DNA of 64,000 bases from Treponema sp. (GTDB lineage Bacteria; Spirochaetota; Spirochaetia; Treponematales; Treponemataceae): positions 15,964 to 79,963 of the forward strand of contig JAKSTL010000002.1 in assembly GCA_024402595.1 (NCBI GenBank). The letters run 5' to 3'. The translations under genes and the position numbers were made by a program. Below the pieces are notes generated by a model. It did not search any database and had not been told where the DNA came from. It worked only from the letters and a program-made list of their open reading frames with translations. This document shows, piece by piece, positions 386-59,513 of the stretch (its first letter is position 1; every line of letters begins with the position of its first letter).

Positions 386-466
386 GGGGGTTCCGCGGCT
401 TACCTACGGACGGTCCTTCGGACTGCACTTTTGCCCTGCAAAACCGCACCGCTCCATACCCTTTGC
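386..466 (-). repeat. Structured GC-rich intergenic element, copy E
   Basis: Minus strand reads GCAAAGGGTATGGA-GCGG...CCGC-GGAACCCC. It shares an exact 18-mer (GGCTTACCTACGGACGGT on the + strand) with the copy at 59429-59513. Confidence 0.75.
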
Positions 467-469
467 CTA

Positions 470-482
470 GGGGTCTGTCCCC
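470..482 (-). repeat. Single GGGGACAGACCCC palindromic repeat
   Basis: GGGGTCTGTCCCC on the + strand, immediately 5' of element E in the same orientation. Confidence 0.85.
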
Positions 483-492
483 CATTGTGCTA

Positions 493-1755
493 TTACAAAA
501 CTTCTTCTTCAAAGACAATACTCAAATCTTCTGTTAAAATTTCTTTCCAAGCTTCCTTGTATGCATCAAGACAACCAGCGGGAATAACAATTACCAAATC
601 TTTCTTAAGATTATCTTTACCAATTTCAGGAGCAGTCGGGCTTTTAAAATAAATCTTTTCTAACTTATCACATTTTGCCAGAGAACTGTCCCCTATCGAC
701 TCAATTTTTTCAGGTATCACAATCTGTTCAAGATTTGAACATTCATAAAAAAGATTATCAGAAAGTCTTGTCATAGAATTCGACAAAATAACGCTTGCTA
801 ATTTTTTACAGCCCTTAAAACAACTGTCCCCAACCGAAATAACATTATCTGGTATTTTTATAGATTCCAAAGCTTCACAACCAGAAAAAACTTCTTTTGG
901 TAATTCTTTAAACTTTTCATTTTCAGAAAGATTAAATGCTGTTAATTTCTTGCAATTATAAAAAACCGAATTTCCAATTTTAATTAACCTATCAGAATCT
1001 GCAATTGTTATTTTTTCCAGCGCTGAACAATCGTAAAACAACCCTTCCGCCAATTCCGATATTTCCTCAGGCAGCAAAATAGTTTTTAATGCCTTGCATC
1101 CTCTGAACACATTTTGTTCTAAAACTGTAACTCCTTCTGGTAAACTTATTGACTCTAATTTTGAACAGTTTTTAAAAAAATCTTTCGGAAGCTTTACTGT
1201 TGGTGATTTTTCATTATCTCCATATTTGTCATTCCCTGTATTGATTTTAACACTTTCAAAGTTCTTCAATTCTGTCAAAGATGAACAACCTTCAAAAGTA
1301 ACTGTATCGGGGGACAGTTCTATCCCTTCTTTCAAAATAATCCTTTCTAATTTAGCACAATCTTTAAACGAGGGAACTGTCCCCAAACTGGCGGGAAGAA
1401 CAGAATATTCACTTGCATTTCCAACAACACATATTTTCTCTAAGTTCTTACAGCCTTCAAAAGTATCTATTTCTTCCACTGTATTAGGAAAAGCAATAGT
1501 TTTCATAGTGGACAATCCGGCGGCACCTTTTAATTCAACTTTTACAACACTTTTTCCTGCAACAAGTTCTGGTATAATCAGTTCATTCACAACACTTTGG
1601 TAAGATAAAGTTGCATTATCTTTGGTAAGCCGAACTTTTACCTGAATATCTTCATTTCCAAGGTCTGTTTTCATATAGCTGGTTTCAAAATTACTGCATC
1701 CCCACAAAAGCAAAAAAGAACCAATTGAAAGGATAAATAAAAATCTCTTTTTCAT
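493..1755 (-). CDS. BspA-like leucine-rich-repeat (LRR_5) lipoprotein
   Basis: Signal peptide with lipobox LLLWG-C. Tandem TpLRR-type repeats such as FxGCxxLxxIxLPxxxxxIxxxxF. Confidence 0.9.
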   Translation of the reverse strand: MKKRFLFILSIGSFLLLWGCSNFETSYMKTDLGNEDIQVKVRLTKDNATLSYQSVVNELIIPELVAGKSVVKVELKGAAGLSTMKTIAFPNTVEEIDTFEGCKNLEKICVVGNASEYSVLPASLGTVPSFKDCAKLERIILKEGIELSPDTVTFEGCSSLTELKNFESVKINTGNDKYGDNEKSPTVKLPKDFFKNCSKLESISLPEGVTVLEQNVFRGCKALKTILLPEEISELAEGLFYDCSALEKITIADSDRLIKIGNSVFYNCKKLTAFNLSENEKFKELPKEVFSGCEALESIKIPDNVISVGDSCFKGCKKLASVILSNSMTRLSDNLFYECSNLEQIVIPEKIESIGDSSLAKCDKLEKIYFKSPTAPEIGKDNLKKDLVIVIPAGCLDAYKEAWKEILTEDLSIVFEEEVL

Positions 1756-1756
1756 C

Positions 1757-2503
1757 TTAAAACCTCTTTGAAGGAATCATGTATGTCATACCAACATTAA
1801 TTCTATGAACTATATCCTTCTTTGTATCTCTCTTATTTTCATCAGGAATCCAAGGATGTAACAAGAAGGTATAAGACGCCGAAAATCCAATTCTATCAAA
1901 TAAAACATACCTGATTTTTACAGGAATACCTAATCCCATAGAATAAATAAGTGTGTTTGTACTGTTTTCCCCAATTGTTTGTTTATTTTTGTACCAGCTT
2001 TGGGTAAAACACAATCCTGTTGCCAATGTTAAATCCGGAAATATTTCATACAAAAAGCAAATCTCTGGAGTATATATTGTAATAATTTTATTTTGTTCTT
2101 CTTTTACAAGGGTGTTTTTATTATTACTAGAATTAAAATTAGAAAATCCGTATTCAGCACCAAGAGAAATAGAAAGGCCAAATATTCCAAAATGAATCTC
2201 TGTTAAATCAACTGAAAAACTAATTTGAAAAAAATTACCAGGATTCTTCTTTTCATAGTTTTCCTGTGAAAAATAATCTTTGAATTGATTATCAATATTA
2301 ATGCCAGCGCTTAAATTAAGATTTGTATAGACTCTATAATCATCAACCGACAATTCTGCTGTATTTTGAAAAAATTGAAAAGAAGCCTGCTCCAATTCAA
2401 CAATCGAATCAGAAACAGGCTTAAAAGCCTCACAGAATTGACTGGCAAAACTGTGAGATGAAATAAACAGAAATATAAAAATTATAATCGCCCGTAGCTT
2501 CAT
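1757..2503 (-). CDS. Exported protein, probable small outer-membrane beta-barrel
   Basis: Signal peptide, alternating hydrophobic strands, C-terminal HRINVGMTY strand. Confidence 0.55.
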   Translation of the reverse strand: MKLRAIIIFIFLFISSHSFASQFCEAFKPVSDSIVELEQASFQFFQNTAELSVDDYRVYTNLNLSAGINIDNQFKDYFSQENYEKKNPGNFFQISFSVDLTEIHFGIFGLSISLGAEYGFSNFNSSNNKNTLVKEEQNKIITIYTPEICFLYEIFPDLTLATGLCFTQSWYKNKQTIGENSTNTLIYSMGLGIPVKIRYVLFDRIGFSASYTFLLHPWIPDENKRDTKKDIVHRINVGMTYMIPSKRF

Positions 2504-2507
2504 AAGT

Positions 2508-5500
2508 TTATTTTACCAAAATAAACTCAACTCGTCGATTCTTCCAGTTATTATCTGTATCTTTTGAATTAACAACAGGCTTTGTACCGCCCATACCTTC
2601 AGTTATAACATTGTTTGCACTAACGCCTTTCTTTACAAGATAAGCCTTAATTGCATCTGCTCGTTCTTTGGAAAGTGGCATAAGAGCTCTACCCCAAACT
2701 CTTGGATTATCCACTGTTTCTTCATCAATGTTGTCAGAAATACGGTTTGCATGTCCTTGAATTGTAACTTTATAATCAGGGAACTTTTTAAGGATTTCTG
2801 CAATACGATTCAAGATTTCCACATTTTTCTGAACCTGTTCAGCTGTAAGCTTAGCATTTGTATTCTGGAAGTTTGCTGCATCAGATTCAAAAATGATTGA
2901 AGGAACTGCCATCTTAAGAACATTACCTTCGCGAATAACAAGAACATCTACAGGAATTACACCTTCATAAACAGAAGTCATTCCAAGATTGTCAGTTACT
3001 GTAAATGCATAAGGATAATCCATAGCAGACTGAACTCGTTCTGCATTTCCAGAAGCATCTTTCTGCAAATTACTCAAACCATCCCAAATGATTCGTTCTG
3101 TAATCTGAGATTTTCCTTCTGTCTTCCAGAATGCTTTTCCTTTTGGATCGTTAATAACAAAAGACCAATTCTTAATTTTTGCTTTTGTTGTACCAGTCAG
3201 ACGAATGAACAAGTCATCATCCACACCATCGTTGTCCGGACTAAAGAACTCTGGAGCTGTCTGCACTCTAAGTTGAGGAGGAGTTGCTGTACAAATAAAT
3301 GGAGATGAAACTGAACTTACTCTGTTACCTTTTTTGTAAAGTACATCCAAAGTACCTGTAAAGGTTCCTTCACATGCATTTCCATCTTTATCGGCTCCAT
3401 TCCACTTAATTTCTGCTGGCAAAGATGGACGGTCTTTATCTGAAAGTTCATAAACAGAAGTTCCATCTTCTTGTCTAATATTAAAGTTCCATGTCAACAA
3501 ATCTTCTGTAACACTAGCTCTTATTTCAAAAATCTGCTGGTCTAAAGTTCCATCATCGTTTGGAGAAATACCTTCAAACTCAGATGTCAGATAAAGTTTT
3601 GTTTCTCTGTTATCCAGCACAATTTCTTTAATAGCTGTACTGAATGTATTTCCTGCATCATCTGTTGACGAAATTACAATACTGTATTTTCCATCTGCTG
3701 CGAGATTTCCTGATTCATCTGTACCATCCCAGTCAAAGTTTGTCTTTACACCATTCCAAGAAGTTTTCTTAACTACAGCATTTTTTTCATTACGAACTTC
3801 TACATTCCAAAGTTTTTCGTTTGTACATTCAGAAATTACTACAGGAATATTATCTTGATTTCCATCGGCATCTGGAGAGAAATAAATCCAAGGAATCTCT
3901 GGTACTAAATAAGGAGCTTTTGTATCCAACTCGAAAGCTTGAGTGCCCGCTTCTGCTGTTGAACCATTGGCCGCTGTAACAGAAAGTTTTGCAGTATACA
4001 TTCCATCATCACAGCGAACGCCATCATCACCATTACCATTCCAGATGAAGTTTGAAGGAAGTTTTTTGTTTTCAGATTTTGTATAAACTGTCTTTCCTTC
4101 TCCATCAGCAATTACAAAACTATATGCAACTACATCCTTTGTTTGAGTTATAGGATTAAAGGTGATTGTGTCTTTTACTTTGTTTGCATTTGGAGAGAAT
4201 GCAGTTTCTGTCATAGCCAGTAAAAGCTGAGTTTCTGTAGTATCAAAAGTAACAGTATCAATTGAAGAAGCGCCACCTTTATTTCCAGCCATATCTGTTG
4301 CAGAAAGAACCATAACATATTCGCCTTTTTCTGCAATTCCACCTTTATCATTAATACCATTCCATACAATGCTTTCTGGTGGGAACTCGCCTAAATCATA
4401 AGAACGAACTACGGTTTCATCGGTAACAGATTTTATTTCTGCCTTCCAGTTTGTTACAGGAGAACCGTTTGAAGGTGTAATCATAATTGAGAAAGTAACA
4501 TCAGCTTTTGCACCTGCACCAAAAACTTTGTCAGACACTCTAACTTGAGCAACAGGTTTTTCTGTATCAAGAACAAATACTGGCGAAGAAATCTTTGATG
4601 GAACATAGCCATTTAAATATTTAGCAGTTACATAAGCCTGATATTCACCATCTGGAAGTGGAGTTCCTTTATCATCATCACCGGTAATTGTAATTGCCGC
4701 TGGTGGGATTGCACCATCCTTTGTTTGATTAAAACTTTTTACAAGTTTTCCAGATTTATCTGTAATTCCAACTTCCCATTCTGTAAGCTTATTACCAGTT
4801 TTTTCTTCTGGAACTGGAATTGTAAGATTAAGCATAACCGAAGCTAAAGAACTGTCTGTTCGAGGAGAAAAATATCTTGAACCGTTGATGAAAATATTTG
4901 TAGCTGGCTTTTCTGCTGAATAAATGATATTTGAAATTATAGACTGTGGAGCTGTGTTTCCGGCTCTATCGGTAGCTGTAATTTCATAAGAATAAACACC
5001 GTCAGGAATCTGAGTGCCTTCATCATCTGTTCCCTTCCAACTGATAGTTTCTGGGGCTGCATTTATCCATTTATAAGTTTTGAACACTCTTCCGTCAATG
5101 CCTTTAAACACTGCGGTCCATTCATCTTCAACAGAACCTTCCTGGGTAACTTTGAAGGCTGCTTTTGCTCCTTCACCAAATATTTTATCTCCTGGCTGAT
5201 TAAGTTCAATTTCAGGAGCTACAGTATCAACTACAATCGTAAACTCTTTTGTACGACCTTCGTTACCATTATCATCAGTTGCGGTCAAATAATAATAATA
5301 TGTACCGTCTGGAGCTGTTTCACCATTATTCATAGCTCCATTCCAAATAATCTGCTCTGGAATCTGAACTCCCTGTTTTTTTGCAAGAAGCTGTTTAAAG
5401 AAAGATTTAACTGTTAATTTTGAAGGAAGAGCCACCTTGTTTTCGATTGTTCGGACTACATTTTTATTTTCGTCCATAATAACAAGGCTCCATCCCTGAA

Positions 5501-5651
5501 CATATCGTTTGTCGCTAATACCAGGACGAAGCACTAATTCATCCTGAATACCATCGTTGTTTGGAGAGATATAATAAGTTTTAGGAGCAGCAAAAAGTCC
5601 TGTAAGAACACAACCTGTAATTACTAAAGCTAAAAATATTGATTTTTTCAT
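2508..5651 (-). CDS. Periplasmic protein with about 8 FlgD-Ig/CHU_C-like repeats and a C-terminal OmpA peptidoglycan-binding domain
   Basis: Repeated [FI]SPxxDG ... WxGxxxxG...DGxY units. The C-terminus has I-x-GHA...LSxxRAxAIxxYL...NRRVEF. Confidence 0.88.
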   Translation of the reverse strand: MKKSIFLALVITGCVLTGLFAAPKTYYISPNNDGIQDELVLRPGISDKRYVQGWSLVIMDENKNVVRTIENKVALPSKLTVKSFFKQLLAKKQGVQIPEQIIWNGAMNNGETAPDGTYYYYLTATDDNGNEGRTKEFTIVVDTVAPEIELNQPGDKIFGEGAKAAFKVTQEGSVEDEWTAVFKGIDGRVFKTYKWINAAPETISWKGTDDEGTQIPDGVYSYEITATDRAGNTAPQSIISNIIYSAEKPATNIFINGSRYFSPRTDSSLASVMLNLTIPVPEEKTGNKLTEWEVGITDKSGKLVKSFNQTKDGAIPPAAITITGDDDKGTPLPDGEYQAYVTAKYLNGYVPSKISSPVFVLDTEKPVAQVRVSDKVFGAGAKADVTFSIMITPSNGSPVTNWKAEIKSVTDETVVRSYDLGEFPPESIVWNGINDKGGIAEKGEYVMVLSATDMAGNKGGASSIDTVTFDTTETQLLLAMTETAFSPNANKVKDTITFNPITQTKDVVAYSFVIADGEGKTVYTKSENKKLPSNFIWNGNGDDGVRCDDGMYTAKLSVTAANGSTAEAGTQAFELDTKAPYLVPEIPWIYFSPDADGNQDNIPVVISECTNEKLWNVEVRNEKNAVVKKTSWNGVKTNFDWDGTDESGNLAADGKYSIVISSTDDAGNTFSTAIKEIVLDNRETKLYLTSEFEGISPNDDGTLDQQIFEIRASVTEDLLTWNFNIRQEDGTSVYELSDKDRPSLPAEIKWNGADKDGNACEGTFTGTLDVLYKKGNRVSSVSSPFICTATPPQLRVQTAPEFFSPDNDGVDDDLFIRLTGTTKAKIKNWSFVINDPKGKAFWKTEGKSQITERIIWDGLSNLQKDASGNAERVQSAMDYPYAFTVTDNLGMTSVYEGVIPVDVLVIREGNVLKMAVPSIIFESDAANFQNTNAKLTAEQVQKNVEILNRIAEILKKFPDYKVTIQGHANRISDNIDEETVDNPRVWGRALMPLSKERADAIKAYLVKKGVSANNVITEGMGGTKPVVNSKDTDNNWKNRRVEFILVK

Positions 5652-6784
5652 TATTTTTCTCCTTCTGTAGACTCATTAAGGGTCTCATCTGTAAGTTCTT
5701 CATCATCAATCCAAAGTTTGATTACCGGTGGAGTCTTATCTTTAAGACCAAGATCAACATCAGCACCAAAAGAAACTGCATTTATTCCACCATAAAGCTG
5801 TTTCCATGCACTATTTACAGACATTTCACTCTGGCTCCATCCATTTTTTGCCAGATATTCGCTGTTTTTTACATCAAAAGTAAATCTGAATGTAATGCCA
5901 ACAGATGGAATTACATTTACATAACCCTTTGCCAGCTCCAGTACATTAAACTTATCGGAAACACTCACATAGAACATATCTTTTATAGAAAGCTGCAGGC
6001 CCATATCCGCAATAAGATTCATAAACATTGGAGTTGTTAAATCAAAGGAACCAGCCAGCTTTATCACTTTGTTTGAATAGAAAGTTCCCGCTGCACCAGC
6101 TTTAAGTGTTGCTATGGTTGGAAGGCCTAGTTTTGCGTCATAAAGTGTAGCGCCATCATCTGTTTTTATTCTTGGCAAAGTTGTGTGATTAAGATTTTTA
6201 CCAAGATTCAAAAGAGATGCTCCAAATCTAAAGTCTTTTACTGGACCAAGATTTCCCCACACATACAAAAAACCAAGGTTTGCGGAAAGAAGCCAGTCTG
6301 TATCTGCACCCCAGAAAATGCCTGTGTTCAGATTCATTCCGATATCAAGTTTATCTGTTATTTCCTTTGAAAGGCCAGCTTTCATGGTCATTGAATTACC
6401 AACATTCAAAGGGTCAAGAGAACAGAATGTTCCGTTGTAATAACCGGACAAAACAGCCCATTTAAATGGAATTAAAATACCAGCCTGTAAAGCATCTCCG
6501 AACTTTTCCCCATCACCAGAACCAAACAGTAAAGTATTTGCAAGATTCAAACCAACCCGTTGATTTGAAGCGGTAAGGGCTGGATTTACATTCATTGCTT
6601 CAGGACCAGCGTAAAACAATCCTCCTCCTGTAACAGAAGCTCCATTTGAAAGAGTTCGTGGACTTGAAAGCTCATAGAAACTGTCGCCGCCAACCGATGG
6701 ATTGTAAAAATAATCTTTTGCAAAAGCAGTGTTTAGTAAAACAAAAATAGAAAGCGTGATTATAGCAATTTTTTTCATCTTCAT
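5651..6784 (-). CDS. Outer-membrane beta-barrel of the FadL/PorV/UPF0164-like type
   Basis: Signal peptide, SPRTLSNG...AMNVNPAL N-terminal motif, FGASLLNLG and LPTxxxLxAG strands. The stop codon overlaps the downstream ATG. Confidence 0.65.
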   Translation of the reverse strand: MKMKKIAIITLSIFVLLNTAFAKDYFYNPSVGGDSFYELSSPRTLSNGASVTGGGLFYAGPEAMNVNPALTASNQRVGLNLANTLLFGSGDGEKFGDALQAGILIPFKWAVLSGYYNGTFCSLDPLNVGNSMTMKAGLSKEITDKLDIGMNLNTGIFWGADTDWLLSANLGFLYVWGNLGPVKDFRFGASLLNLGKNLNHTTLPRIKTDDGATLYDAKLGLPTIATLKAGAAGTFYSNKVIKLAGSFDLTTPMFMNLIADMGLQLSIKDMFYVSVSDKFNVLELAKGYVNVIPSVGITFRFTFDVKNSEYLAKNGWSQSEMSVNSAWKQLYGGINAVSFGADVDLGLKDKTPPVIKLWIDDEELTDETLNESTEGEK

Positions 6785-7077
6785 TTCTCCTATCTCCTAT
6801 TTTTTATAGAAAGATTTTTATGCAATTGATTTATCTCCGAGATTTTTGTAGGACTTTTAAAAATTTCTTTTTAACCGAAATATAACACAGTATTATAAAG
6901 AATGGTTACAGTTTGTTCTATAAGTATTTTGTATTATACAGGCTTATTATATTTATAGAAGATTTTATCAGATTCATTCATCAAAGTTATATTTTTACCA
7001 TATTTATGGCGGTCTTTAATTGAGCGGGTCATGCTTTATGTTGATAATTTGAGAAAATTGACATATATTAATAAGAT

Positions 7078-8643: not shown

Positions 8644-8674
8644 ATTTTCTCTTTACCAATCATAACCGATTAAA

Positions 8675-12661: not shown

Positions 12662-12881
12662 GGGGACAGACCCCTAGAAAATTGGTTTTGCTGAGGGGAC
12701 AGACCCCTTGGATTTTTGTTGAACAAAGGGTAAACAAAGGGGACAGACCTGTGTAAATATCCAGGCGTTTGGGGACAGATCTCTAGGAACTGAGGGGACA
12801 GACCCCCTGAGTATAAAAAAGTTTCCGTAATTGGATGAATGAATTAGGGGACAGACCTCTATAGATTAGGGGACAGACCCC
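12662..12881 (+). repeat. Array of 7 co-oriented GGGGACAGACCCC-type repeats with unique spacers
   Basis: Copies start at 12662, 12695, 12739, 12771, 12794, 12847 and 12869. Spacers are about 9-40 bp. Confidence 0.92.
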
Positions 12882-12922
12882 GTAGAACATTCTGACAAAA
12901 ACCACTTATAAACAAAATGGTC

Positions 12923-13030
12923 TTGCGAAGGCGTGGAAGGGAGCCGAAGGCTGCAACCGGAAGGAACGAACCGCAGGTGAGTGACTGAGGATGCCGCGCG
13001 TTAGCAAGCCCTGGAAGGCCGTTCTGTGGT
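12923..13030 (+). repeat. Structured GC-rich intergenic element, copy A
   Basis: TTGCGAAGGC-GTGGA-AGGG...CCCT-GGAAG-GCC-GTT, with GCCGAAGGC and ACCGCAGGT mini-hairpins. Confidence 0.8.
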
Positions 13031-13151
13031 TGGAACGAAAGCTTTGTGGAAGGGATATTTTTTATAAAAGGAATTAGCCCAGTCTTTTTATTGTTTTTCT
13101 TGTTGAAATTATTCATTGTAATTTACTAATTCTTGAAGTATATTTTATCTC

Positions 13152-16717: not shown

Positions 16718-16937
16718 GGGGACAGACCCCGAAATAATTGGAAATTATAGGGGACAGACCCCGAAAATATTTTATTGTGAGGTAATTGTGGGGGACAGTT
16801 CTCAATTTTTCGTTTTCTTCTTGGGGACAGACCCCAATTTATTTCAAACGATTTTGGACTACAGCTTGGTGGGGACAGACCCCTGTTTTTATCAATAAAT
16901 TAAATGTTGGTGTTGTGCTGATAAGGGGACAGACCCC
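16718..16937 (+). repeat. Array of 6 co-oriented GGGGACAGACCCC-type repeats
   Basis: Copies start at 16718, 16750, 16791 (variant), 16823, 16871 and 16925. The last copy touches the thiP stop codon. Confidence 0.92.
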
Positions 16938-18440: not shown

Positions 18441-19424
18441 TTAGAATGCTACCTTATATGATTCAGGAAGCACGACTTTTTTATTAGCAGGGAACATCCA
18501 CTGTGTTAAAGGAATAACACTCTGGGCTTCTTCGCTGATAAAGAAATCCATAAAGGCCTTTGCTCCAGAAAGATTTTTTGCACCTTTTACAATAGCTGCA
18601 CCTTCAATCTGCTGAACATGACCATCTGTAAACTTCAATGCTACAAACTGGTCGCCTTCACCATATTCAATATGATAAGCAGGACTTGTTGTATAACTGA
18701 TTACCAATGGTGCTTCTCCATTTGTGAACATTCCATATCCAACGCTCCAACCAGGTGCCATTGTAAGAATTGAAGGTTGAAGTCGTTTCATATAATCATC
18801 ATATTTATCGCCATAAACAGTTTTTACCCAAACATCAAAACCTAAGCCTGGTGTACTTGTTTTTGGATCCATAAGAATAATCTTTTTTTCGTAAATTGAT
18901 TTTGTCAAATCCTCAAGACAAGTTGGTGCTGGAACTTTTGACTGTGTGTTGTAAATCATAGCAAACTTACTGTAATCATAAGGAATTAGATAGTAATTAT
19001 TTGCGGCTGTTCGTTTTGATGGTGCATCTGGATTATTTAATTCATCAATCAAGGCATTATCGATAACCTCATCAATATTAGCAGGTTTATATGCGTAAAG
19101 GATTCCGCTGCTAAGGGCTTGTTTAGAAAGATTGTTATCAAGACCAATTAAAACATCAGCATAAGGATCTTTCTTTTCAAAAAGCGCTTTTGACAGTATT
19201 TGCACACCGTCACCACAATCGGCATAAATAACTTTAATACCGGTTTTTTCTTCAAAAAGACGAGCCAATTCTGGTCCTGGGCCCCATTCGCCAATAAATG
19301 AATCATAAGAATAGATTACAAGTTCGTTTGTACGAACATCAGTTTTTTTACAAGCGCTAAAAAAGCAACTGCAAACTAAAATAAAAATAAATGAAATTAA
19401 TAAAGAGACAGATGATTTTTTCAT
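18441..19424 (-). CDS. thiB: Thiamine ABC transporter substrate-binding lipoprotein
   Basis: YSYDSF...WGPGP, DVLIGLDN, DPKTSTPGLG, WSVGYGMF, SYTTSPAYH. Start moved to MKKSS (19424), which follows a GGAGG SD. Lipobox FFSA-C. Confidence 0.93.
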   Translation of the reverse strand: MKKSSVSLLISFIFILVCSCFFSACKKTDVRTNELVIYSYDSFIGEWGPGPELARLFEEKTGIKVIYADCGDGVQILSKALFEKKDPYADVLIGLDNNLSKQALSSGILYAYKPANIDEVIDNALIDELNNPDAPSKRTAANNYYLIPYDYSKFAMIYNTQSKVPAPTCLEDLTKSIYEKKIILMDPKTSTPGLGFDVWVKTVYGDKYDDYMKRLQPSILTMAPGWSVGYGMFTNGEAPLVISYTTSPAYHIEYGEGDQFVALKFTDGHVQQIEGAAIVKGAKNLSGAKAFMDFFISEEAQSVIPLTQWMFPANKKVVLPESYKVAF

Positions 19425-19425
19425 G

Positions 19426-19512
19426 TCTTCCTCCGCCAGCATTATCTGGTTCAGGTTCTAGGGTATAATCTCAGCCTTTTTTCTCCCAACGGGCAAAAAA
19501 AGCACCCCTGAT
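19426..19512 (-). promoter_or_regulatory. TPP riboswitch
   Basis: Minus strand reads CAGGGGTGC...GGCTGAGATTATACCC-TAGAACCTGA-ACCAGATAATGCTGGCGGAGGAAG, the canonical TPP aptamer motifs, directly upstream of thiB. Confidence 0.95.
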
Positions 19513-19630
19513 AAATTGATTAGTTATTTATATATAAAAAAAGTTATTTTTACAACCTTTATCTATAATCAGATAGTAAAAGAACAAAAACCACTCTATA
19601 AACTAACAGTTAGAATAAAAATGTTCAGAA

Positions 19631-21223: not shown

Positions 21224-21624
21224 GGGGTCTGTCCCCTTTTTATGCTTTTTATGCAAAACAATCAGTGTTATCTTTGAGGTCTGTCTCCTTTGAGTTTCCA
21301 TTGGAACATTTCGGGGTCTGTCCCCTTTGTATTACAACCTAAATATATCAGGGACAGACCTCTGGCTTTTTTTTTGTATTGTTCGCTAGAAATTCATTTA
21401 GATTACAGCATGATGACTGTCCTTTGCATTTGTGTCGTAAAATCACATTCTTCTACTGTAATTTACAGTTTGCGAAGGTATGGAGGGCCGCGGAAGCGGG
21501 TACGAACCTAAAAGGTGAGTACCAACCGTAGGGGCGCCCGGAACACCGTTAAGTGGTTAAGATAAACTTTTTGTAATAAAGATATTCACAAACAATCTTG
21601 CTCGCCCAATAGGGGTCTGTCCCC
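21224..21624. repeat. Cluster of 5 GGGGACAGACCCC-type repeats in mixed orientation, flanking element B
   Basis: Minus-oriented copies at 21224, 21276 (variant), 21313 and 21612. Plus-oriented variant at 21350. Confidence 0.85.
21470..21557 (+). repeat. Structured GC-rich intergenic element, copy B
   Basis: TTGCGAAGGT-ATGGA-GGGC...GCCC-GGAAC-ACC-GTTAAGTGG. The internal ACGAACC-loop-GGTGAGT arm is also present in copy A. Confidence 0.8.
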
Positions 21625-27851: not shown

Positions 27852-27910
27852 TCAAACCTCTAAATATTTTTTAGCCAGGCAAAAGGCCAATATTAAATTA
27901 CAAAATGCAA

Positions 27911-28015
27911 ACCACTAACGGCCTTCCGCACTTCGCTACCGCTCATCGTCCTCGTCGCCCTCCACTACCGTTCCGGGCTCCTGTGGTCGACTAACGGTGC
28001 TCCACGCCTTTGCAA
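27911..28015 (-). repeat. Structured GC-rich intergenic element, copy C
   Basis: Minus strand reads TTGCAAAGGC-GTGGA-GCAC...GTGC-GGAAG-GCC-GTTAGTGG, with an internal GCCC-GGA-AC..GT-GGA-GGGC arm. Confidence 0.8.
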
Positions 28016-28025
28016 GTTCCTTTTC

Positions 28026-36450: not shown

Positions 36451-36511
36451 GAGGGCGCCTGCCCTACGCTCCAAAGTCCTCGCTGCGCTGCGGTCTTTTC
36501 CGCTACCCCTC
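36451..36511 (-). repeat. Structured GC-rich intergenic element, short divergent copy H
   Basis: Minus strand reads GAGGG..GC-GGA-AAAG...GCGCAGC...CTTT-GGA-GC..CCCTC, with the same GGA/GGA loop and a GNA mini-hairpin. Confidence 0.6.
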
Positions 36512-51137: not shown

Positions 51138-51442
51138 ATACGACCTCCTAAACTTGGTAAAAATAACTTTCCAAAAATGTAATATCAAGTCAAAACTATA
51201 ATAATGATAAGACCAGATGGATAATATGTCAAAAAAAATGGTAGGGATATTTTAGAAGTTTATTTATGAACTCAAAGGGTATCATAAATGCATTATTTTT
51301 GCGTTTATGTTACAGCTTTTTAATTTATATAATGGTGAAAAATCAGGCAATAATTTATACTTATAGAAACTAACTTTGATTGAATTATCAAAATGAATTA
51401 AAAAAAAGTCTAAATTATTTTGCATTTATGAAGGGCAGAAAA

Positions 51443-52015: not shown

Positions 52016-52020
52016 AAAAT

Positions 52021-52063
52021 AAGCTTTTTGCCGAAAAATGTTTTTCTTTCCAGCAAAAAGCTT
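52021..52063. terminator. Probable bidirectional terminator
   Basis: AAGCTTTTTGC...GCAAAAAGCTT inverted repeat between convergent genes. Confidence 0.65.
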
Positions 52064-52136
52064 ACTTTCAGTTACAAATTGAATATCAGTTATCAATCAT
52101 TTTAATTGCAAGTTTTTTACACTCCCAAACAAACGA

Positions 52137-52823
52137 TTATTCATAAGTGTTATAATTCAACTCTGGATTATAAGTTCCCGTTCTATATTCTCCGGTAATA
52201 CTTGGGATTTTCATTTTCATACCAGGTTTTATAAGATTTGGATTTTCCGGTTTTACCATATCATTTTTATTTGCCTGATACAGATTTTCCCACAACCAAG
52301 GATTATTATAAACAAAAGAACGGCCTGCAATATTCCAATAACAATCTTTAGATTCAGCCCAAGGTCGAACAATGTAATATTCTGGAAGTGGAACTGTTTC
52401 TTCTACACCATCCAAGCAATCCATAACTAATTTTGCATATTCTTCTGTTTTTTCATAATCTTCTGAATCAAAAGCGGTTTGTGCATTCTGAAGATTTTCT
52501 TTAGCCGCAGAATAAGCCATTGGATAATTTATTGCTGCATTTACACTTTCTGCCCAAGAAAACTTATTTTTTGCCATCTTCAAATAAGAATCAGCATCAC
52601 CACGAACCATCATCATTTCTATAAATGCTTTTGACAAGGCTGCATTTTCTTCTGCTTTAAGCGAATATTCCATTGCAGTTTCATATTCACCAGCATCCAA
52701 GGCCGCTTCTGCTTTTTTTGCATACTCGTCGGCCAGCTTCTGATAAGTATTGTTTTTATAACTAATAGCAAAAATTGATGCACAACACAAAGAAAGCACT
52801 AAAATAACAAATGATTTTTTCAT
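52137..52823 (-). CDS. Exported helical protein with a C-terminal LysM-like domain
   Basis: Signal peptide; YIVRP...DCYWNIAG..VYNNPWLW..LY.AN...NPNLIKPGM. Confidence 0.85.
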   Translation of the reverse strand: MKKSFVILVLSLCCASIFAISYKNNTYQKLADEYAKKAEAALDAGEYETAMEYSLKAEENAALSKAFIEMMMVRGDADSYLKMAKNKFSWAESVNAAINYPMAYSAAKENLQNAQTAFDSEDYEKTEEYAKLVMDCLDGVEETVPLPEYYIVRPWAESKDCYWNIAGRSFVYNNPWLWENLYQANKNDMVKPENPNLIKPGMKMKIPSITGEYRTGTYNPELNYNTYE

Positions 52824-53944
52824 TATTTAGCATCCTCCATACGTTTTTTAATATTTAAAAGATCATCCACCATTGTTGGATCTTCAATTGTTTCTGGAAT
52901 CTGAAGTTCTGATGCACTTGGATCTGCAAAAGAATCCTCCTCAAGAAGCACTGTATCTTCATCTTCAATGCCCGCAACTTTTTCTCGAATTGGAGCTTCC
53001 ACATCGGCTTTAAGGGCAAAATCATTACTTTCTGCTACCTTTTTCTTAGCGGCTTCAATGGCGGCTTTTGCTGCAGCTCGTTTATCATAAATGGCACTGT
53101 ATAATTCTTCAAAAATTGCCTGTGCATTTTTATAATTTTCTGTGGCTTTTCGTGGATTCGACATAGAATACTGAGAATCGCCCATTTTAAAAGCATCTAC
53201 CGCTTCTGTGTATTTAATCTTTTGAGAAACTCCCGCTTTTACTTCATCAGCTTTCAATTTTGCATCATAAGCCTTAGCACGAGCGTGTTTTGCAACTTCT
53301 TTATAAACACTACCCAAAACGGTTGTAAAACAAGTGAATCCAGCAGTTGCTTTTTCCAATTGATTTTTTCCCGCACCAAGAGTTGCATCTTCACACAAAG
53401 CTTCATATTCCGCAATATTTTTGCAGCCTTCATCATACAAGCTCTGAACTACAGAAAGGAATGTTGTATCTGCAACAATTTCGTCAATTGTGGCTTTAGT
53501 TTCCATTGCATTGATATAAACAGGGATTGCAGCATAACGAGCAGATAAATCAACTTTTTGTTCAGAAATATCAATTTTACCTTCTTTTGCATCGGCTTTA
53601 ATGGAATCATAAATTGAATCTACCTGCTGAAGCTGTAAAGAAGCTTTTTCACTAGCACCCATTTCTATTGCGGTAGTTCTAGCATTATCAATAGCAAAAA
53701 TAGATTCTGTATTATCAATAATAACAGGTTCTGGCTCAGGCTCTGGTTCCTGTACTTCAATAACAGGCATTTCTGGTTCTGGCTCAACTTCGGGTTCAAT
53801 TTCTGGCTCTGGTTCTGGCGCTGGCACAATCACAGGCTCTGGAGCAACTGGTTCCGGCTGATTTTCTTCAACAGGCTTTGAACCACAAGAAATTAAAGCT
53901 AAAATAAATAAAGCAGAAATTAAACCGCTTACTATTTTTTTCAT
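52823..53944 (-). CDS. Lipoprotein with a Pro/Glu-rich linker and helical repeats
   Basis: Lipobox LIS-C, (EP)n tract, Ala-rich helices. Translationally coupled to the LysM gene. Confidence 0.8.
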   Translation of the reverse strand: MKKIVSGLISALFILALISCGSKPVEENQPEPVAPEPVIVPAPEPEPEIEPEVEPEPEMPVIEVQEPEPEPEPVIIDNTESIFAIDNARTTAIEMGASEKASLQLQQVDSIYDSIKADAKEGKIDISEQKVDLSARYAAIPVYINAMETKATIDEIVADTTFLSVVQSLYDEGCKNIAEYEALCEDATLGAGKNQLEKATAGFTCFTTVLGSVYKEVAKHARAKAYDAKLKADEVKAGVSQKIKYTEAVDAFKMGDSQYSMSNPRKATENYKNAQAIFEELYSAIYDKRAAAKAAIEAAKKKVAESNDFALKADVEAPIREKVAGIEDEDTVLLEEDSFADPSASELQIPETIEDPTMVDDLLNIKKRMEDAK

Positions 53945-54227
53945 ATTTTCCTCCCACTTTTAATTTTTCGAGAAACTTTACCGAGTTACACGGTTATCTT
54001 ATAGTATTTAAAAAATCTGTTCTATAGGTATTTTTTAGGTATTCCTTATCTATTTTTTTATAAACCGTTTGCGTGGGCGAACATGAATATATAAAGCAGT
54101 CCAAAAGTAACATAATCGCGCCATTTTAGCGTTTATATTAAAGCCTTCAATATTTTCAAACTTACCACCTATAAAATAATAATTATTTTTCAAAATGTGT
54201 GATAAAATATTAAAAACGGAGGTTTTT

Positions 54228-54455
54228 ATGGCAGAAGATTTTTCATATCAGATTGAAAAGACTTTAGGTGTTATTTCAGAAGGAAAAGGCGGATGGAATA
54301 TTGAATTAAATCTTATTTCCTGGGGTGGCCGTCCTGCAAAATATGATATTCGAAGCTGGTCGCCAGATCATCAAAAAATGGGAAAAGGGATTACTTTTAC
54401 AGCAGACGAAATCTCATCCCTAAAAACATTATTAAACACTCTTGATTTTGAATAA
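54228..54455 (+). CDS. YdbC/PC4-like single-stranded DNA-binding protein
   Basis: GWNIELNLISW...KYDIRSWSPDHQKMGKGIT. Start at MAEDF after GGAGG. Confidence 0.9.
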   Translation: MAEDFSYQIEKTLGVISEGKGGWNIELNLISWGGRPAKYDIRSWSPDHQKMGKGITFTADEISSLKTLLNTLDFE

Positions 54456-54459
54456 AGAA

Positions 54460-55497
54460 TTATTCGTTATAATCGGCAACTGCTAAACTAGCACCTTTTT
54501 TTACAACAATCTCATAAAGCATTTTCTGCAAATATACTTCTTCCAGTAAAGTTCCACTGGAGCGGGTTTCCATATCCGTAGAAGCTAAAACTGCCAGAAT
54601 TGCCGTTGCTTGTCCAACTGTCCAGATTCGAGCAGCATTTCTATACTGTTTTTGCATGGTTGAACTTGAAAATCCGTTTGACTTCAATGTTGTTGCATCA
54701 GCAGTTCCACCCGCATTTATTTTATGCCAAAGAACTAATTTTCGGAAACAAGATGCCAAACCCACAATAATCATAACTGGGGAATTATCTTTTGAAAGAA
54801 GAATCTTTTGTAAAATCTCAATTCCAGCTTCAAATCTTTTTTCTGCACTTTCCGAAGCATTAGAAATCTGATTAAACAGAGTAAAAGCATTTTCTTCCCG
54901 ATTATGAATCAATATGGAACTTACATCGTCATCTGTAATAGTATGCTCTTTTGGAAAACAAACAAAAAAGCGGGAACATTCATTTCGTAAAGCTTCCGTG
55001 TTATTTTCCACCATATCAAGAATCAACTGTGCCGCTTCCGACTTAATTTTATAACCGTTTTTCTGGAAAAATGAAGAAACCCAAGGTAGTTTTTCATTTT
55101 CGTACATTTCCCAAAACTTTTTGCGGTTCTCGCCAGGAATCAATTTTTCTAGCTTGGCATCCACAGAAATATCATCAGAAATTAAAATTAAAATGGAAGA
55201 TATTTCTTCACCGTTTTTTGAAGCCTTTTCAATATTTTCCAGCCATTTTTTCAGCTGATTTATATCGTCCGCCTTTTTTAAAAGTTCTGCATTTTTACAA
55301 ACCACACAGGTTGCGGCAGAAAAGAGAGTTCCACCTTCCAGCACGGGAACAATTTCACCAAAAGAAGTGTCTATGAGATAGAAAAGATGCTCGTCCACAT
55401 CCCCAAATTTTTTCTTTGCCGCCTTTTTTATTTCATCAACAGCATCGTTTCTTTTTCCAAATTCAGGGCCTGTAAAAAGATAGAGAGGAAGTGCCAT
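54460..55497 (-). CDS. holA: DNA polymerase III delta subunit
   Basis: LYLFTGPEFG, TLF, 345 aa, AF.LF motif, LLEEVYLQKM C-terminus. Confidence 0.85.
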   Translation of the reverse strand: MALPLYLFTGPEFGKRNDAVDEIKKAAKKKFGDVDEHLFYLIDTSFGEIVPVLEGGTLFSAATCVVCKNAELLKKADDINQLKKWLENIEKASKNGEEISSILILISDDISVDAKLEKLIPGENRKKFWEMYENEKLPWVSSFFQKNGYKIKSEAAQLILDMVENNTEALRNECSRFFVCFPKEHTITDDDVSSILIHNREENAFTLFNQISNASESAEKRFEAGIEILQKILLSKDNSPVMIIVGLASCFRKLVLWHKINAGGTADATTLKSNGFSSSTMQKQYRNAARIWTVGQATAILAVLASTDMETRSSGTLLEEVYLQKMLYEIVVKKGASLAVADYNE

Positions 55498-55503
55498 AAG
55501 CGC

Positions 55504-56115
55504 CTAGTAGGTTCGCACAATATTTGAAAGAATACCTACGATTCTTACATCCTGACAGTAAATAGCTTGAAATTCAGGATTTTCCGGCTGAAGACGAACA
55601 CGGGTTGCTTCCTTGTAATATCGTTTTAAGGTAATAGCATCATCAATAACTGCAACAATAATCTGTCCATCTACCGCAGTGCTAGCCTGTTCGATAACCG
55701 CAAGATCACCTTCAAGAATTCCTGCATTTATCATACTGGTGCCACGAACTCGCAATGCAAAATAACTTTTTCCAGGACGCACAAAAGGTTCTGTCAGGTT
55801 TACATAACCATCCAGATTTTCTTCAGACAATAAAGGTTTTCCCGCAGCCACAGTACCCAACAAAGGAACCTTTCCCACAAAAAGTTTATCTTCTTTTTCT
55901 CGCAAATCAGAAAGCACACGAATTGAACGAGAGCGTTTTTGAGTTTGAGTCAAAAAGCCTTTTTTCTGTAATGCAGAAATGTGATCCTGTACAGCACGAA
56001 GAGAAATATCAAAATGTTCACCAATTTCGCGAACTGTTGGTGGAAACGCATTTTCTTCAGTGAATTCAGAAATAAATGTTAAAACTTCCTTTTGTCTTTC
56101 CGTAATCTGCTTCAT
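55504..56115 (-). CDS. lexA: SOS repressor LexA
   Basis: TERQKEVL, PPTVREI, VAAG cleavage site, GTSM catalytic Ser, TLKR catalytic Lys. Confidence 0.97.
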   Translation of the reverse strand: MKQITERQKEVLTFISEFTEENAFPPTVREIGEHFDISLRAVQDHISALQKKGFLTQTQKRSRSIRVLSDLREKEDKLFVGKVPLLGTVAAGKPLLSEENLDGYVNLTEPFVRPGKSYFALRVRGTSMINAGILEGDLAVIEQASTAVDGQIIVAVIDDAITLKRYYKEATRVRLQPENPEFQAIYCQDVRIVGILSNIVRTY

Positions 56116-56181
56116 TGTAGGACTTCCTTTTTTTATGATTTACAAGAATGCATTAAAATGAATAATATTTTCTATTATAAT

Positions 56182-56448
56182 CTACTCTTCTTCAAACTTG
56201 CTTTCAAATAAAGCTTCTATTGTACTTGCCGCTTCCGATTCATCAGGACCAGAAACCGTTAAAGTCATTTGTGTATTATATCCAGCGCCCATAGCAATAA
56301 CACCCATGATTGACTTTGCATTTACAGTTGCATCATCTCGTGTAAGAATAATTTCACTTTCAAACTTATTAGAAGTCTGAGCTATAATAGCTGCAGGACG
56401 AGCGTGAATGCCTGCACGATTTTTTACAGTTAAAATTTTTTCAATCAT
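56182..56448 (-). CDS. ptsH: HPr phosphocarrier protein
   Basis: GIHARPA and NAKSIMG motifs. Confidence 0.96.
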   Translation of the reverse strand: MIEKILTVKNRAGIHARPAAIIAQTSNKFESEIILTRDDATVNAKSIMGVIAMGAGYNTQMTLTVSGPDESEAASTIEALFESKFEEE

Positions 56449-56496
56449 AACAAATCCTTTGACGGTCTTTCCGCCATTTTTGATTAAATATATATT

Positions 56497-57486
56497 CTAG
56501 TACGAATCGTCGTTACCATAATATGCGTTGTTTGCGTCCCCAGTTTCCATCCACTTAAGAACATTCTGATTAAAATCCTGAGCCGAATTATACCCCATAT
56601 CCTTCAATCGCTCATTCATCGCCGCCGCTTCAATAATAATAGGAAGGTTTCTACCAGGACGAACAGGAATCTCAATAATCGGAATCTTAACACCCAGCAA
56701 TTCCTTATATTTCTGCTCCGTTCCCAATCGATCATAAGCCTTAGAAGAATCCCAATCCTCCAGCTGAACAATCAACTGAACCTCTTTTTGATTACGAATT
56801 GCACCAACCCCATAAAGTTGCGAAATATTAATAATACCAAGACCACGAATTTCCATGTGGTGACTGATTAAAGAATTAGCACCTCTACCAAGCAGCGTAT
56901 TTCCGTTAACACATCTAACTTCAATAATATCATCCGCTACCAAACGATGCCCTCGTTCTACCAATTCCAAAGCAGTTTCGCTTTTTCCAACCCCAGAATG
57001 TCCGTTCAACAAAATACCAATACCGTAAACTTCAACCAAAACCCCGTGAAAAGTCTGATGAGGAGCAAAAATATTAGAAAAAACACGAATAATACGACTG
57101 GAAAATTCCGTAGAAGTCAAATCAGTTTTTAAAACCGGACAACAACTTTCTTCCGCCAATGCACGAAATTCTTCCGTAGGCTCCAAATCATGGGTAAAAA
57201 CACAACAAGGCATTTCGTTCTTAAAAAAATTTTCTAGAGTATCCGTAGAATTTTCATTATGAAGTTTTTGAAGATAAGCAGTTTCGCCACGACCAAAAAG
57301 CTGCACTCGGTTTCCAACAAAATCCTCATAAAAACCACACAATGCAAGCCCCGGCCTGTTAATTTCAGGAATAGTAATAGCTCTTGGCAATCCACGCCTG
57401 CCGGCAATGCACTTTAAATGAAGAGCATCATGACCAGATAAATCCAAATCTAGTAAATCAAGAACCGTGAATCGTTTTTCAGCCAT
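56497..57486 (-). CDS. hprK: HPr kinase/phosphorylase
   Basis: NRPGL, HGVLV, GHSGVGKSETALEL, LVADD, EIRGLGII, PGRN. Confidence 0.97.
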   Translation of the reverse strand: MAEKRFTVLDLLDLDLSGHDALHLKCIAGRRGLPRAITIPEINRPGLALCGFYEDFVGNRVQLFGRGETAYLQKLHNENSTDTLENFFKNEMPCCVFTHDLEPTEEFRALAEESCCPVLKTDLTSTEFSSRIIRVFSNIFAPHQTFHGVLVEVYGIGILLNGHSGVGKSETALELVERGHRLVADDIIEVRCVNGNTLLGRGANSLISHHMEIRGLGIINISQLYGVGAIRNQKEVQLIVQLEDWDSSKAYDRLGTEQKYKELLGVKIPIIEIPVRPGRNLPIIIEAAAMNERLKDMGYNSAQDFNQNVLKWMETGDANNAYYGNDDSY

Positions 57487-57592
57487 ACAAGTATACTATA
57501 CACATTGATTCATAATTTTTCAAGGTGAACTCCGCCAAAACAAAGCACACCTTGAACATAAAATGGAACCCAAAATGGACCCCAAACTTCCT

Positions 57593-58348
57593 TTATTTAT
57601 TCTTATTTATAATTCTTGTTTCCTGCTTTCCAGAAGCAATTTCAATAAATCGAACAAACAAAGAAACCTTGTTATCTTCATTCAATGCATTCCAAATAGC
57701 ATCTGTCATAACATCAATAGAAGAAGAAACCTGAGCATCCAATTTTACCTTAACCGGCTCCCCTTCAAAACTTGGCAACGGATTTCCATCTCCCATATAA
57801 GTATGAATGTAATGACCTTCTCCATTCTGAGGATTGTCATAAGTATAGGTAAAACGAAGAGTATTATCCCCATTTCCACAATCACTTTTCAAAATAGAAA
57901 GAGCATAGTTATAAGCGCCATTTTCAATTTCCAAAAGAGAAGAAATACGAGGAGTGTAATTTGGAGCGTCGTGTTCATATTTTCTACTGCGCAAAGACTG
58001 TTCAAAAGTTAAACCCTTAGCCAAACCTTCCGCAATAGTGTCCGTCTGGTCTCCATTAGTAACAATAGTTTTATTTCCCAACTGACGAACAGCAGCATAA
58101 ATAATCAAACTTGGGTCTCCCGCAATCAAAGATGGGTCAAAAGCCTTTGTGCGAATAACATCAGTTGTCTTTCCATCAGCCCCCGTTTCCTGCTCAGTAA
58201 CAAAAACACGGTTGCGACTACCAGCACTTCTACCCATAGTCCAATAAGCCGAAATTGCATATTTTCCATCAGCCGATTTTCCCGCAATAATACCTCGTCC
58301 AGGATAACTTGTACTTCCCAATTCTTTCTGTAATTCAACCATATTCAT
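57593..58348 (-). CDS. IMP cyclohydrolase, PurO-like type
   Basis: YPGRGI, MGRS..SRNR, LIIY, VTNGDQTD, YEHDAPNYTPRIS. Confidence 0.88.
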   Translation of the reverse strand: MNMVELQKELGSTSYPGRGIIAGKSADGKYAISAYWTMGRSAGSRNRVFVTEQETGADGKTTDVIRTKAFDPSLIAGDPSLIIYAAVRQLGNKTIVTNGDQTDTIAEGLAKGLTFEQSLRSRKYEHDAPNYTPRISSLLEIENGAYNYALSILKSDCGNGDNTLRFTYTYDNPQNGEGHYIHTYMGDGNPLPSFEGEPVKVKLDAQVSSSIDVMTDAIWNALNEDNKVSLFVRFIEIASGKQETRIINKNK

Positions 58349-58372
58349 CCTCGCACACTCCTTTGGCCCGTT

Positions 58373-59275
58373 TTATTTTCGATTTTTCTCAACTTCATCA
58401 TGAAGTTCATTCATAATTTTCATCACAGCCCCAACAGTTTCCACCTTTGGATCAGGACAATCAGCAGGCAAACTAGCCAGCACATCATTACGGAACTTTT
58501 TACACTCAATCACCGGACTCGCAGTCATAGTTACCACATCAGGCACAACCAAATCCGCCAGCATATCTTCAGGATTTTCAGGATTAATTCTAAGACAGTT
58601 GCCATTAATAGAAACCAGCATCATAACATCAAAAAGACGAAGATAACTGTCAATTTCCCGCAAACCTTTCTTAGTTTCAGGCTTACCAGGTCTATATCGA
58701 GTACCACTTGGGAAAACAAGAATTACCTGTCCCTTTTTCTTACAAGTATCCATTGCTCGCATAGCCGCAAAATTAATCTTTCTAGCCCGTTTTTCCTCTT
58801 CCGCCTTTTCTTCATCCGTTGCATCAGTTTTCATAAAAGCGTCCAGACTTCTAGAAGGATAAACCACAACCCGCGAATAACTTTCACAAAAAGCACGAAC
58901 ACCCGCACTAGCTTCATTCAACTTCATTCCCGCAATAGCAATAATTCTGTTTGCCAAATCCTTAGACCAGTCTTCACCATGCTTATTCAAAAGATAAATA
59001 ATTCCCGGTAAATCAGTGTTAGAATAATGCTCCATCATAATAAGACCATGCTTGCCTTCCTTAGTAACAGCATCATAAAAAGCCTTAAAGTTTTCTACAT
59101 TTCCCAAACCAGACTCAGGAAGAATATTTTCCGCCAGCAAAATATCCATATATTTTCGAGTTTCAACATTTGCTTCTTCAAAAACACAAGTTTCGTCAAT
59201 TTTTGCAGCCGCTTTAGAATGATTTATCATTTCCGCAAAAATTTTTCCGTACTTTTCGCGTAAAGTCAATTCCAT
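58373..59275 (-). CDS. Glycerol-3-phosphate acyltransferase (plastid/chlamydial-type)
   Basis: HX4D motif EHYSNTD, AIAGMKL, FPSGTR. Confidence 0.85.
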   Translation of the reverse strand: MELTLREKYGKIFAEMINHSKAAAKIDETCVFEEANVETRKYMDILLAENILPESGLGNVENFKAFYDAVTKEGKHGLIMMEHYSNTDLPGIIYLLNKHGEDWSKDLANRIIAIAGMKLNEASAGVRAFCESYSRVVVYPSRSLDAFMKTDATDEEKAEEEKRARKINFAAMRAMDTCKKKGQVILVFPSGTRYRPGKPETKKGLREIDSYLRLFDVMMLVSINGNCLRINPENPEDMLADLVVPDVVTMTASPVIECKKFRNDVLASLPADCPDPKVETVGAVMKIMNELHDEVEKNRK

Positions 59276-59428
59276 ATAATTTCCTTCTTAATTTAATTTG
59301 TAACGATTATGAATTATAGAATAATTTATAAGTAATAACAATTAGTCTTGATAAAAGCTCTTTTTCTAAGATTCTGGGCCAAACTTATTTTTTTGCAAAG
59401 AACTATAACACCAAAATCAGCATCCTTT

Positions 59429-59513
59429 CCACTAACGGCCTTTCAGGGCTTACCTACGGACGGTTTTCCGCTTCGCTTCAAACCAGCTTCGCTGCCCTTC
59501 CACGCCTTTGCAA
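59429..59513 (-). repeat. Structured GC-rich intergenic element, copy D
   Basis: Minus strand reads TTGCAAAGGC-GTGGA-AGGGC...GCCCT-GAAAG-GCC-GTTAGTGG, with two GCGAAGC mini-hairpins and a CCGTAGG hairpin. Confidence 0.8.

Follow-up and report, generated by a model that had tools for sequence, protein, structure and literature searches.

A dispersed family of branched, covarying elements in Treponemataceae and its possible reading as folded single-stranded DNA

What are the GC-rich islands that lie between the genes of a gut spirochaete genome, and what keeps them folded in the same way? The question is raised by a 64,000-nucleotide (nt) stretch of a Treponema sp. genome (GenBank assembly GCA_024402595.1, contig JAKSTL010000002.1, positions 15,964–79,963 of the forward strand; this whole stretch is called the window below). 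An original prediction, made from the letters alone, had marked six islands there as one family of structured elements: E (386–466, minus strand), A (12923–13030, plus), B (21470–21557, plus), C (27911–28015, minus), H (36451–36511, minus) and D (59429–59513, minus). All six islands lie at these positions, and five of them, A–E, share a common frame and are full-length members of a dispersed family found in Treponema and in other genera of the Treponemataceae. The fold of this family is clearly under selection. We tentatively favour an element similar in behaviour to repetitive extragenic palindromic (REP) sequences, which would act as one strand of DNA in folded form, recognised by a protein, and weigh this below against a structured RNA and other explanations.

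Five family members in the window

Two covariance models were used: R1, from 30 copies of the commonest class in the source genome, and R2, a broader cross-species model. Scoring of the window with R2, with filters off, identifies five family members; the next match has 15 bits and E = 0.9. In order of score, with island H last, the islands are:

59372–59519, minus strand: element D, a full unit of the main class with a 78-nt core (R1, 141.9 bits; R2, 129.1 bits)
21464–21611, plus strand: element B, a full unit with a GGU/ACC variant of helix P1 (R2, 109.6 bits)
12917–13084, plus strand: element A, a full unit with a 99-nt core and a longer branched interior (R2, 79.5 bits)
27873–28021, minus strand: element C, a full unit with GCAC/GUGC as helix P2 and a different interior (R2, 48.6 bits)
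332–473, minus strand: element E, a divergent member, convergent with a tRNA at 240–312 on the plus strand (R2, 43.8 bits, E = 1e-8)
36451–36511, minus strand: island H, a non-member with hairpins of similar style and without the family frame (no R2 match at E ≤ 5)

Island H had been taken for a relative of A–E and is instead a copy of a separate small repeat; blastn finds around eight copies of it in the genome, on contigs C14, C35, C101, C192, C174 and C94. The unit of 60–110 bp first proposed captures real islands but is too short, the true unit adding a closing helix (GCNAA/UUN'GC), a tail of 15–60 nt and a trailing CC. Over the whole window, Rfam 15 reaches gathering score for one tRNA and one thiamine pyrophosphate (TPP) riboswitch only, with no family overlapping the islands even at E ≤ 10. 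The literature searched yielded no description of this family, which is apparently undescribed so far.

Architecture of the unit

The full unit is non-coding, strand-asymmetric and branched, and spans ~110–170 nt. In the source species its order from 5' to 3' is a weakly conserved RAAWGGNCUU, P0 (GCNAA), P1 (GGC), a (G)UGGA loop strand, the 4-bp helix P2, hairpins H1, H2 and H3, P2', a GGAAG loop strand, P1' (GCC), the tail, P0' (UUN'GC), CC and then A-rich DNA. P0 forms a 5-bp closing helix, the basal P1 helix has 3 bp beside an internal loop, and P2 closes a four-way junction that bears the three small hairpins. H1 and H3 have stems of 2–4 bp, with a C-G closing pair around a GNA triloop, and the longer H2 carries a tandem G-A or GGA/GGA internal loop. 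C-GNA-G triloops had been named as a recurrent part and are dominant (GNA in 55 of 57 H1 triloops). The interior is replaceable by quite different branched modules with the frame retained. Element D, all on the minus strand, illustrates this order:

59507–59511, minus strand: 5' strand of P0, GCAAA, read from the sequence
59499–59506, minus strand: 5' strand of P1, GGC, and the internal-loop strand GUGGA
59495–59498, minus strand: 5' strand of P2, AGGG
59484–59494, minus strand: hairpin H1 with its C-GAA-G triloop
59463–59483, minus strand: hairpin H2, with outer stem, purine internal loop and GC-GAA-GC tip
59453–59459, minus strand: hairpin H3, CC-GUA-GG
59437–59448, minus strand: P2' CCCU, the internal-loop strand GAAAG and P1' GCC
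59383–59436, minus strand: tail or linker, with GUU, GUGG motifs and then a stretch of fixed length and free sequence
59376–59382, minus strand: P0' UUGGC (one mismatch) and trailing CC, with a sharp 3' boundary

Flank profiles place the start of information content at −10, with none further upstream, and its sharp end just past the trailing CC. The conserved 5' RAAWGGNCUU could be part of either the element or its target. The tail is the most changeable portion: in the source species it consists of one or three degenerate copies of a ~20-nt unit (GUUUUGUGG...), its long form holding a 24–28-nt stretch that is fixed in length and free in sequence, and in other genera it ranges from 3 nt up to a clean hairpin. 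Copies in the source genome whose cores are 96–100% identical have tails only 37–60% identical. Three roles for the tail were considered and rejected. A small open reading frame (ORF) is suggested by a Shine–Dalgarno-like GGUGG and an AUG, present in roughly half the copies, but neither the frame nor the length is conserved; the 24–28-nt stretch, as a guide or spacer, has no excess of matches to the flanks of its own copy or elsewhere; and a pre-existing target site is not supported, with no orphan tails in the genome.

Covariation is almost purely Watson–Crick

The stems that had been claimed to covary do so. For P2 alone, the source genome contains at least 12 different 4-bp pairings, all fully complementary. 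In an alignment of 68 sequences from more than 40 genomes, which was fitted to the model and in which related genomes are non-independent samples, 91.3% of cells are paired, as against 62% after shuffling and 31–41% with the partner slid, and both partners show changes at 23 of 25 pairs. When 30 copies are aligned with MAFFT, unfitted to the structure, 92.5% of cells are paired versus 83.6% shuffled and 26–46% slid. The middle pair of P0 also varies jointly (G-C in 23, A-U in 3 and C-G in 1). The family thereby displays the covariation of a structured nucleic acid, and both the P2 versions and the tests on the two alignments bear out the proposal that structure rather than sequence is selected.

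The kind of compensation is equally marked. P2, H1 and H3 together are Watson–Crick in 634 of 640 cells, with no G-U pair at all; G-U reaches 5 of 435 cells in H2 and 21 of 317 in the outer P0. Such Watson–Crick-only compensation, combined with loop types that are stable in DNA, is the pattern of an element acting as single-stranded DNA, and is suggestive, short of proof.

Copy number and taxonomic range

The source genome (3.01 Mb, 35% G+C) contains 91 copies (R1, E ≤ 0.01), or approximately 1 per 33 kb, so that the density of about one copy per 10 kb estimated from the window does not extend genome-wide. A regular expression for both halves of the frame recovers ~70 pairs. Among other genomes of the genus, 33 of 40 carry the family, at 0 to at least 67 copies each (R2, among the best 76 candidates scored), and the relative G047 has at least 69 (best 150 candidates scored); these numbers derive from best-scoring candidates only and are lower bounds. 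Thirteen of 23 other genera of Treponemataceae have the family, usually with 1–14 copies, and none of 31 genomes from the five other families of the order gave a match. Plasmid and phage collections contain nothing similar to the element.

A fixed-pattern scan (20 fixed bases) of genome contigs returned 80 loci, 5 of them confirmed by the model and the rest mostly chance matches in GC-rich genomes. Confirmed named loci come from a Treponema sp. from horse faeces, Treponema bryantii, Treponema sp. RUI346 and a rumen Spirochaetaceae metagenome-assembled genome; a 1-kb contig filed as Alphaproteobacteria is confirmed as well, and is probably misbinned.

Genomic context and orientation

With genes called as simple longest ORFs, gaps holding copies are divergent in 22 cases, convergent in 10 and otherwise co-directional, the element pointing with the genes in 21 of the last and against them in 11; co-directional gaps of G047 divide similarly (20 with, 8 against). 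Of the junctions next to a gene 3' end, around half fall within 25 nt of the stop codon, and those that face a gene start keep at least 30 nt away. The neighbouring genes are unrelated, in the source genome and relatives alike (HflX, YbaK/MetH, HAD, acyltransferase, GroEL, GyrA, GatB, isoamylase, CobW and others). Flank profiles reveal no conserved promoter upstream of the copies. Consensus scoring gives A, B and D no terminator-like site, and its best promoter-like site for A and D, a consensus match only, falls downstream of the element and ahead of the start codon.

In the source genome, 45 of 64 copies have their sense strand on whichever strand is locally richer in G, and in G047 32 of 46 do. 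With the coding-strand component removed, the same bias is 34 versus 18 and 27 versus 13, respectively; the orientation bias is real but moderate.

Sites and inheritance

Element A has no counterpart upstream of hflX in 29 relatives and element B none near metH in 29 relatives, so both sites are lineage-specific, relative to nearest sampled species that are distant (~80% HflX identity). Species G017 and G020 form a closer pair, with flanks 85–96% identical. The three loci that differ between them reflect rearrangements or a truncation rather than clean insertions, and some differences within their orthologous copies are compensatory. Comparisons with potential empty sites met lost synteny at hflX and, in genus g29, an element within a 1.7-kb indel with unrelated genes. 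In the reads of four DNA runs, contigs break at elements A and B, and none of the joints reported bypasses an element. Vertical inheritance, divergent tails and constrained cores together indicate that spread is rare, residence long and the core constrained in place.

A folded DNA strand or a folded RNA

How might such an element work? In the reading that we tentatively favour, the sense strand would become accessible either as lagging-strand template or through negative supercoiling; once exposed, it would fold, and its shape would be recognised by a putative protein. Occasional non-autonomous spread into gene-poor spots beside gene ends could then have produced tens of copies in some lineages and ~90 here, and copies, once placed, would be inherited and kept intact. 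We infer DNA rather than RNA as the folded strand, a protein reader and a transposition-like mode of spread.

The proposal of a single-stranded DNA fold, already part of the original prediction, gains support because G-U pairs are nearly absent and because the small hairpins carry C-GNA-G triloops. The DNA hairpin d(GCGAAGC) melts at 76.5 °C, compared with 39 °C for r(GCGAAAGC), and GNA mini-hairpins mark single-stranded-DNA priming sites and the promoters of phage N4 (PMC13037366); a further source describes how such mini-hairpins depend on a C-G closing pair (PMC3201870). Antisense-placed copies, the promoter-like sites downstream of A and D, the tandem G-A pairs and the spread of copy number within one genus are further points for DNA.

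Several observations weigh against this reading. Standard energy models give no preference for DNA over RNA, and folding energies and z-scores under both parameter sets are undecisive. Gene direction confounds the orientation bias. Some 70% of copies point the same way as neighbouring genes, and in several species the element ends 10–20 nt ahead of a ribosome-binding site and start codon; both observations fit a role as RNA. Of some 21 copies compared between G017 and G020, 17 are at orthologous sites and are ~90% identical (mostly 93–99%), as against 70% for the 150 nt upstream; such conservation in place argues for a function in place rather than for a merely selfish element. Mobility of a non-autonomous kind, which had also been predicted, has indirect support, but we found no empty site, target-site duplication, terminal inverted repeat, autonomous partner or cognate enzyme, and most copies are vertically inherited between these two species. 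Among candidate enzymes, genes for Y1 transposases of the HUH class do not track copy number across the 40 congeners, Y1_Tnp being undetected in several genomes with 26–39 copies; IS91-type Y2 transposases were not found in the genus; and no integron integrase exceeds the cut-off in the source genome (best TIGR02249 match, 74 bits; cut-off, 265).

A structured RNA module is a serious alternative, one that we consider possible if rather doubtful. Here the sense strand would be transcribed, within an untranslated region or as a small RNA, and the folded RNA would be a protein-binding, stabilising or processing element on many unrelated transcripts. The strand-specific fold, the purine-rich loops and the tandem G-A pairs suit RNA, and 41 of 45 copies fold more stably as sense than as antisense strand. 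The co-orientation with neighbours, the many copies in other species that stop just ahead of a ribosome-binding site and ATG, and the better conservation of orthologous copies than of their upstream flanks all point the same way. So do four copies in relative G007 (L041, L147, L148 and L149), which follow 5S rRNA by ~350 nt on the same strand, within a repeated 260-nt block found where rRNA operons end. Against RNA, ~30% of the copies in co-directional gaps run opposite to the genes on both sides, conserved promoters and terminators are missing, and the best promoter-like site for A and D is downstream of the element. Its inner helices essentially lack G-U, its loops are dominated by triloops rather than GNRA or UNCG tetraloops, and a single genus spans copy numbers from 0 to above 60.

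A more ambitious form of the folded-DNA reading appears unlikely to us. The element would then be a chromosomal single-stranded-DNA signal of a new type, a four-way-junction fold of GNA mini-hairpins kept at dozens of sites per genome throughout Treponemataceae and recognised by a conserved protein of the host (a primase, a helicase or another replication or recombination factor, for example) or by a structure-specific transposition system.

Y1 transposases, leaders and terminators

Three further explanations are largely excluded. The substrate of Y1 enzymes is folded single-stranded DNA, and their action leaves neither inverted repeats nor duplications; the source genome has three Y1_Tnp (HUH) genes, two RAYT-like (C172:3305–4150 and C112:69–815; RAYT, REP-associated tyrosine transposase) and one IS200-like. 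A non-autonomous element moved by these resident RAYT-like or IS200-like enzymes is nevertheless very unlikely. The original prediction had looked to Y1 or RAYT genes flanked by the element; both RAYT-like genes are instead flanked by 13-bp GGGGACAGACC palindromes. These palindromes, GGGGACAGACC(CC), number 111 and cluster regionally, with 72 on contigs C112, C132 and C172, and together with the RAYT-like genes probably constitute the true REP/RAYT pair of this genome. A link between element and palindrome was rejected, only 6 of 69 elements lying within 400 nt of one. The IS200-like tnpA (G000:C186:328–816) has its own hairpin-rich ends, duplicated just downstream and unrelated to the element, and genomes with several Y1 genes have only 0–9 element copies, compared with the 26–39-copy genomes that have none detected. 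Two elements (G000:C112:13155–13325 and G000:C132:26159–26331) favour mobilisation in that each is bracketed by two of the 13-bp palindromes; they also share longer flanks, and may represent a composite unit duplicated whole. Within the window the palindromes occur at:

470–482: GGGGACAGACC(CC) palindrome
12662–12881: GGGGACAGACC(CC) palindromes
16718–16937: GGGGACAGACC(CC) palindromes
21224–21624: GGGGACAGACC(CC) palindromes

The genome has a single tnpB (G000:C77:690–1868), whose flank is unrelated to the element; a TnpB-associated RNA was considered and dropped, as the region around this sole tnpB is unlike the element.

A riboswitch or another gene-specific cis-regulatory leader is highly improbable. 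Elements A, B, C and D do lie upstream of co-oriented genes, and a multi-stem junction is aptamer-like, but downstream genes have no common theme, about one-third of copies have no co-oriented downstream gene, 91 copies occur in one genome, the interior of the fold is freely exchangeable and orthologous genes in relatives are without the element. Ordinary intrinsic terminators at transcript 3' ends are scarcely credible: many copies abut the stop codon of a neighbour and short-tail forms have a U-rich GUUUUGUGG after P1', but none of A, B and D scores a terminator-like site, the basal helix beside an internal loop has just 3 bp, the upstream gene is on the opposite strand in 34 of 65 copies (leaving a co-oriented one in only about half), and a complex conserved four-way junction would be superfluous for termination.

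Relation to known systems

The family is a dispersed structured repeat, REP-like in behaviour and attC-like in logic, without the defining features of either, of MITEs (miniature transposable elements with inverted repeats) or of IS200/IS605 derivatives. It shares with the REP sequences, bacterial interspersed mosaic elements (BIMEs) and REPINs that accompany RAYT in Proteobacteria a high copy number, non-coding intergenic placement beside gene ends in either orientation, compensatory changes that keep structure, lineage-specific sequence families and copies better conserved than their flanks. A REP, however, is a single imperfect palindrome of 20–40 nt with a GTAG or CGTC tag, often in inverted pairs and flanking a RAYT gene, whereas the Treponema element is a solitary, strand-asymmetric, branched fold of 110–170 nt in which GTAG occurs only inside the H3 loop region.

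Integron attC sites offer a second likeness: a conserved frame of paired bases, with an unpaired loop at its centre, closes off a terminal structure that is variable and can be branched, sequence is free and pairing strict, and, in the folded-DNA reading, recognition would likewise go through the shape of one folded strand. Unlike attC, the element has no R'' (RYYYAAC) or R' (GTTRRRY) core sites, its 5' side is without AAC, GTT follows P1' only in the source species, and copies are dispersed on both strands instead of forming a one-strand array beside intI. The ends of IS200/IS605 elements and of palindrome-associated transposable elements (PATEs) resemble it in having no inverted repeats or target duplication, strand-specific signals and a replication-related orientation bias; their signals are read as folded single-stranded DNA, as those of the element would be in the folded-DNA reading. 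They differ in bearing one simple hairpin per end and a matching Y1 TnpA, as against one compound fold without Y1 co-occurrence, and the element bears no resemblance to the flanks of the IS200-like tnpA (C186) or of tnpB (C77). It also departs from a MITE, since its ends share only the 5-bp P0 and flank profiles contain no target duplication.

BOX of pneumococcus, enterobacterial repetitive intergenic consensus (ERIC) sequences, Correia/NEMIS and the bcr repeats of the Bacillus cereus group are structured repeats at the RNA level, largely palindromic or bounded by inverted repeats, and tolerate G-U. By their usual descriptions they share with the Treponema element a modular, dispersed make-up, conserved ends around a variable middle and a conserved secondary structure, and they can affect neighbouring transcripts; by the same descriptions, the element stands apart in its closing helix of only 5 bp, its four-way junction and its essential lack of G-U. 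A closer parallel for the hairpins themselves is provided by the complementary-strand origin of phage G4, plasmid ssiA and the early promoters of phage N4, one-strand clusters of GAA-, GGA- or GCA-capped hairpins read by primase or polymerase (PMC13037366). As there, small GNA-triloop hairpins are clustered on one DNA strand; those, however, are single phage or plasmid sites, and here tens of copies are chromosomal and without plasmid or phage similarity.

Dispersed structured repeats are thus familiar. What is unusual in this one is that it is strand-asymmetric and branched rather than palindromic, that its frame is conserved and covarying across a whole bacterial family with interior modules swapped, that its compensation is almost purely Watson–Crick and that individual copies are more conserved between species than their flanks. 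If the DNA reading is true, the family would be among very few complex chromosomal DNA folds under selection, and would imply a reader protein; if the RNA reading is true, it would add a new and abundant class of RNA to the few regulatory RNAs known from the spirochaete phylum. In either case, models R1 and R2 can be used directly to annotate the family and to set up experiments in cultivable Treponema from gut or rumen.

Other repeats and features

In the relative G017, a block of ~110 nt occurs twice in tandem directly upstream of an element (L038:1300–1500), an arrangement that G020 conserves. Another dispersed repeat, of ~47 nt, was noted in relative G093 of genus g29 (L186:1741–1787), with dozens of copies in the complete 2.7–2.8-Mb genomes G072, G097 and G102. 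The TPP riboswitch of the window (61 bits; 19411–19519, minus strand) lies upstream of a minus-strand gene at 18441–19442.

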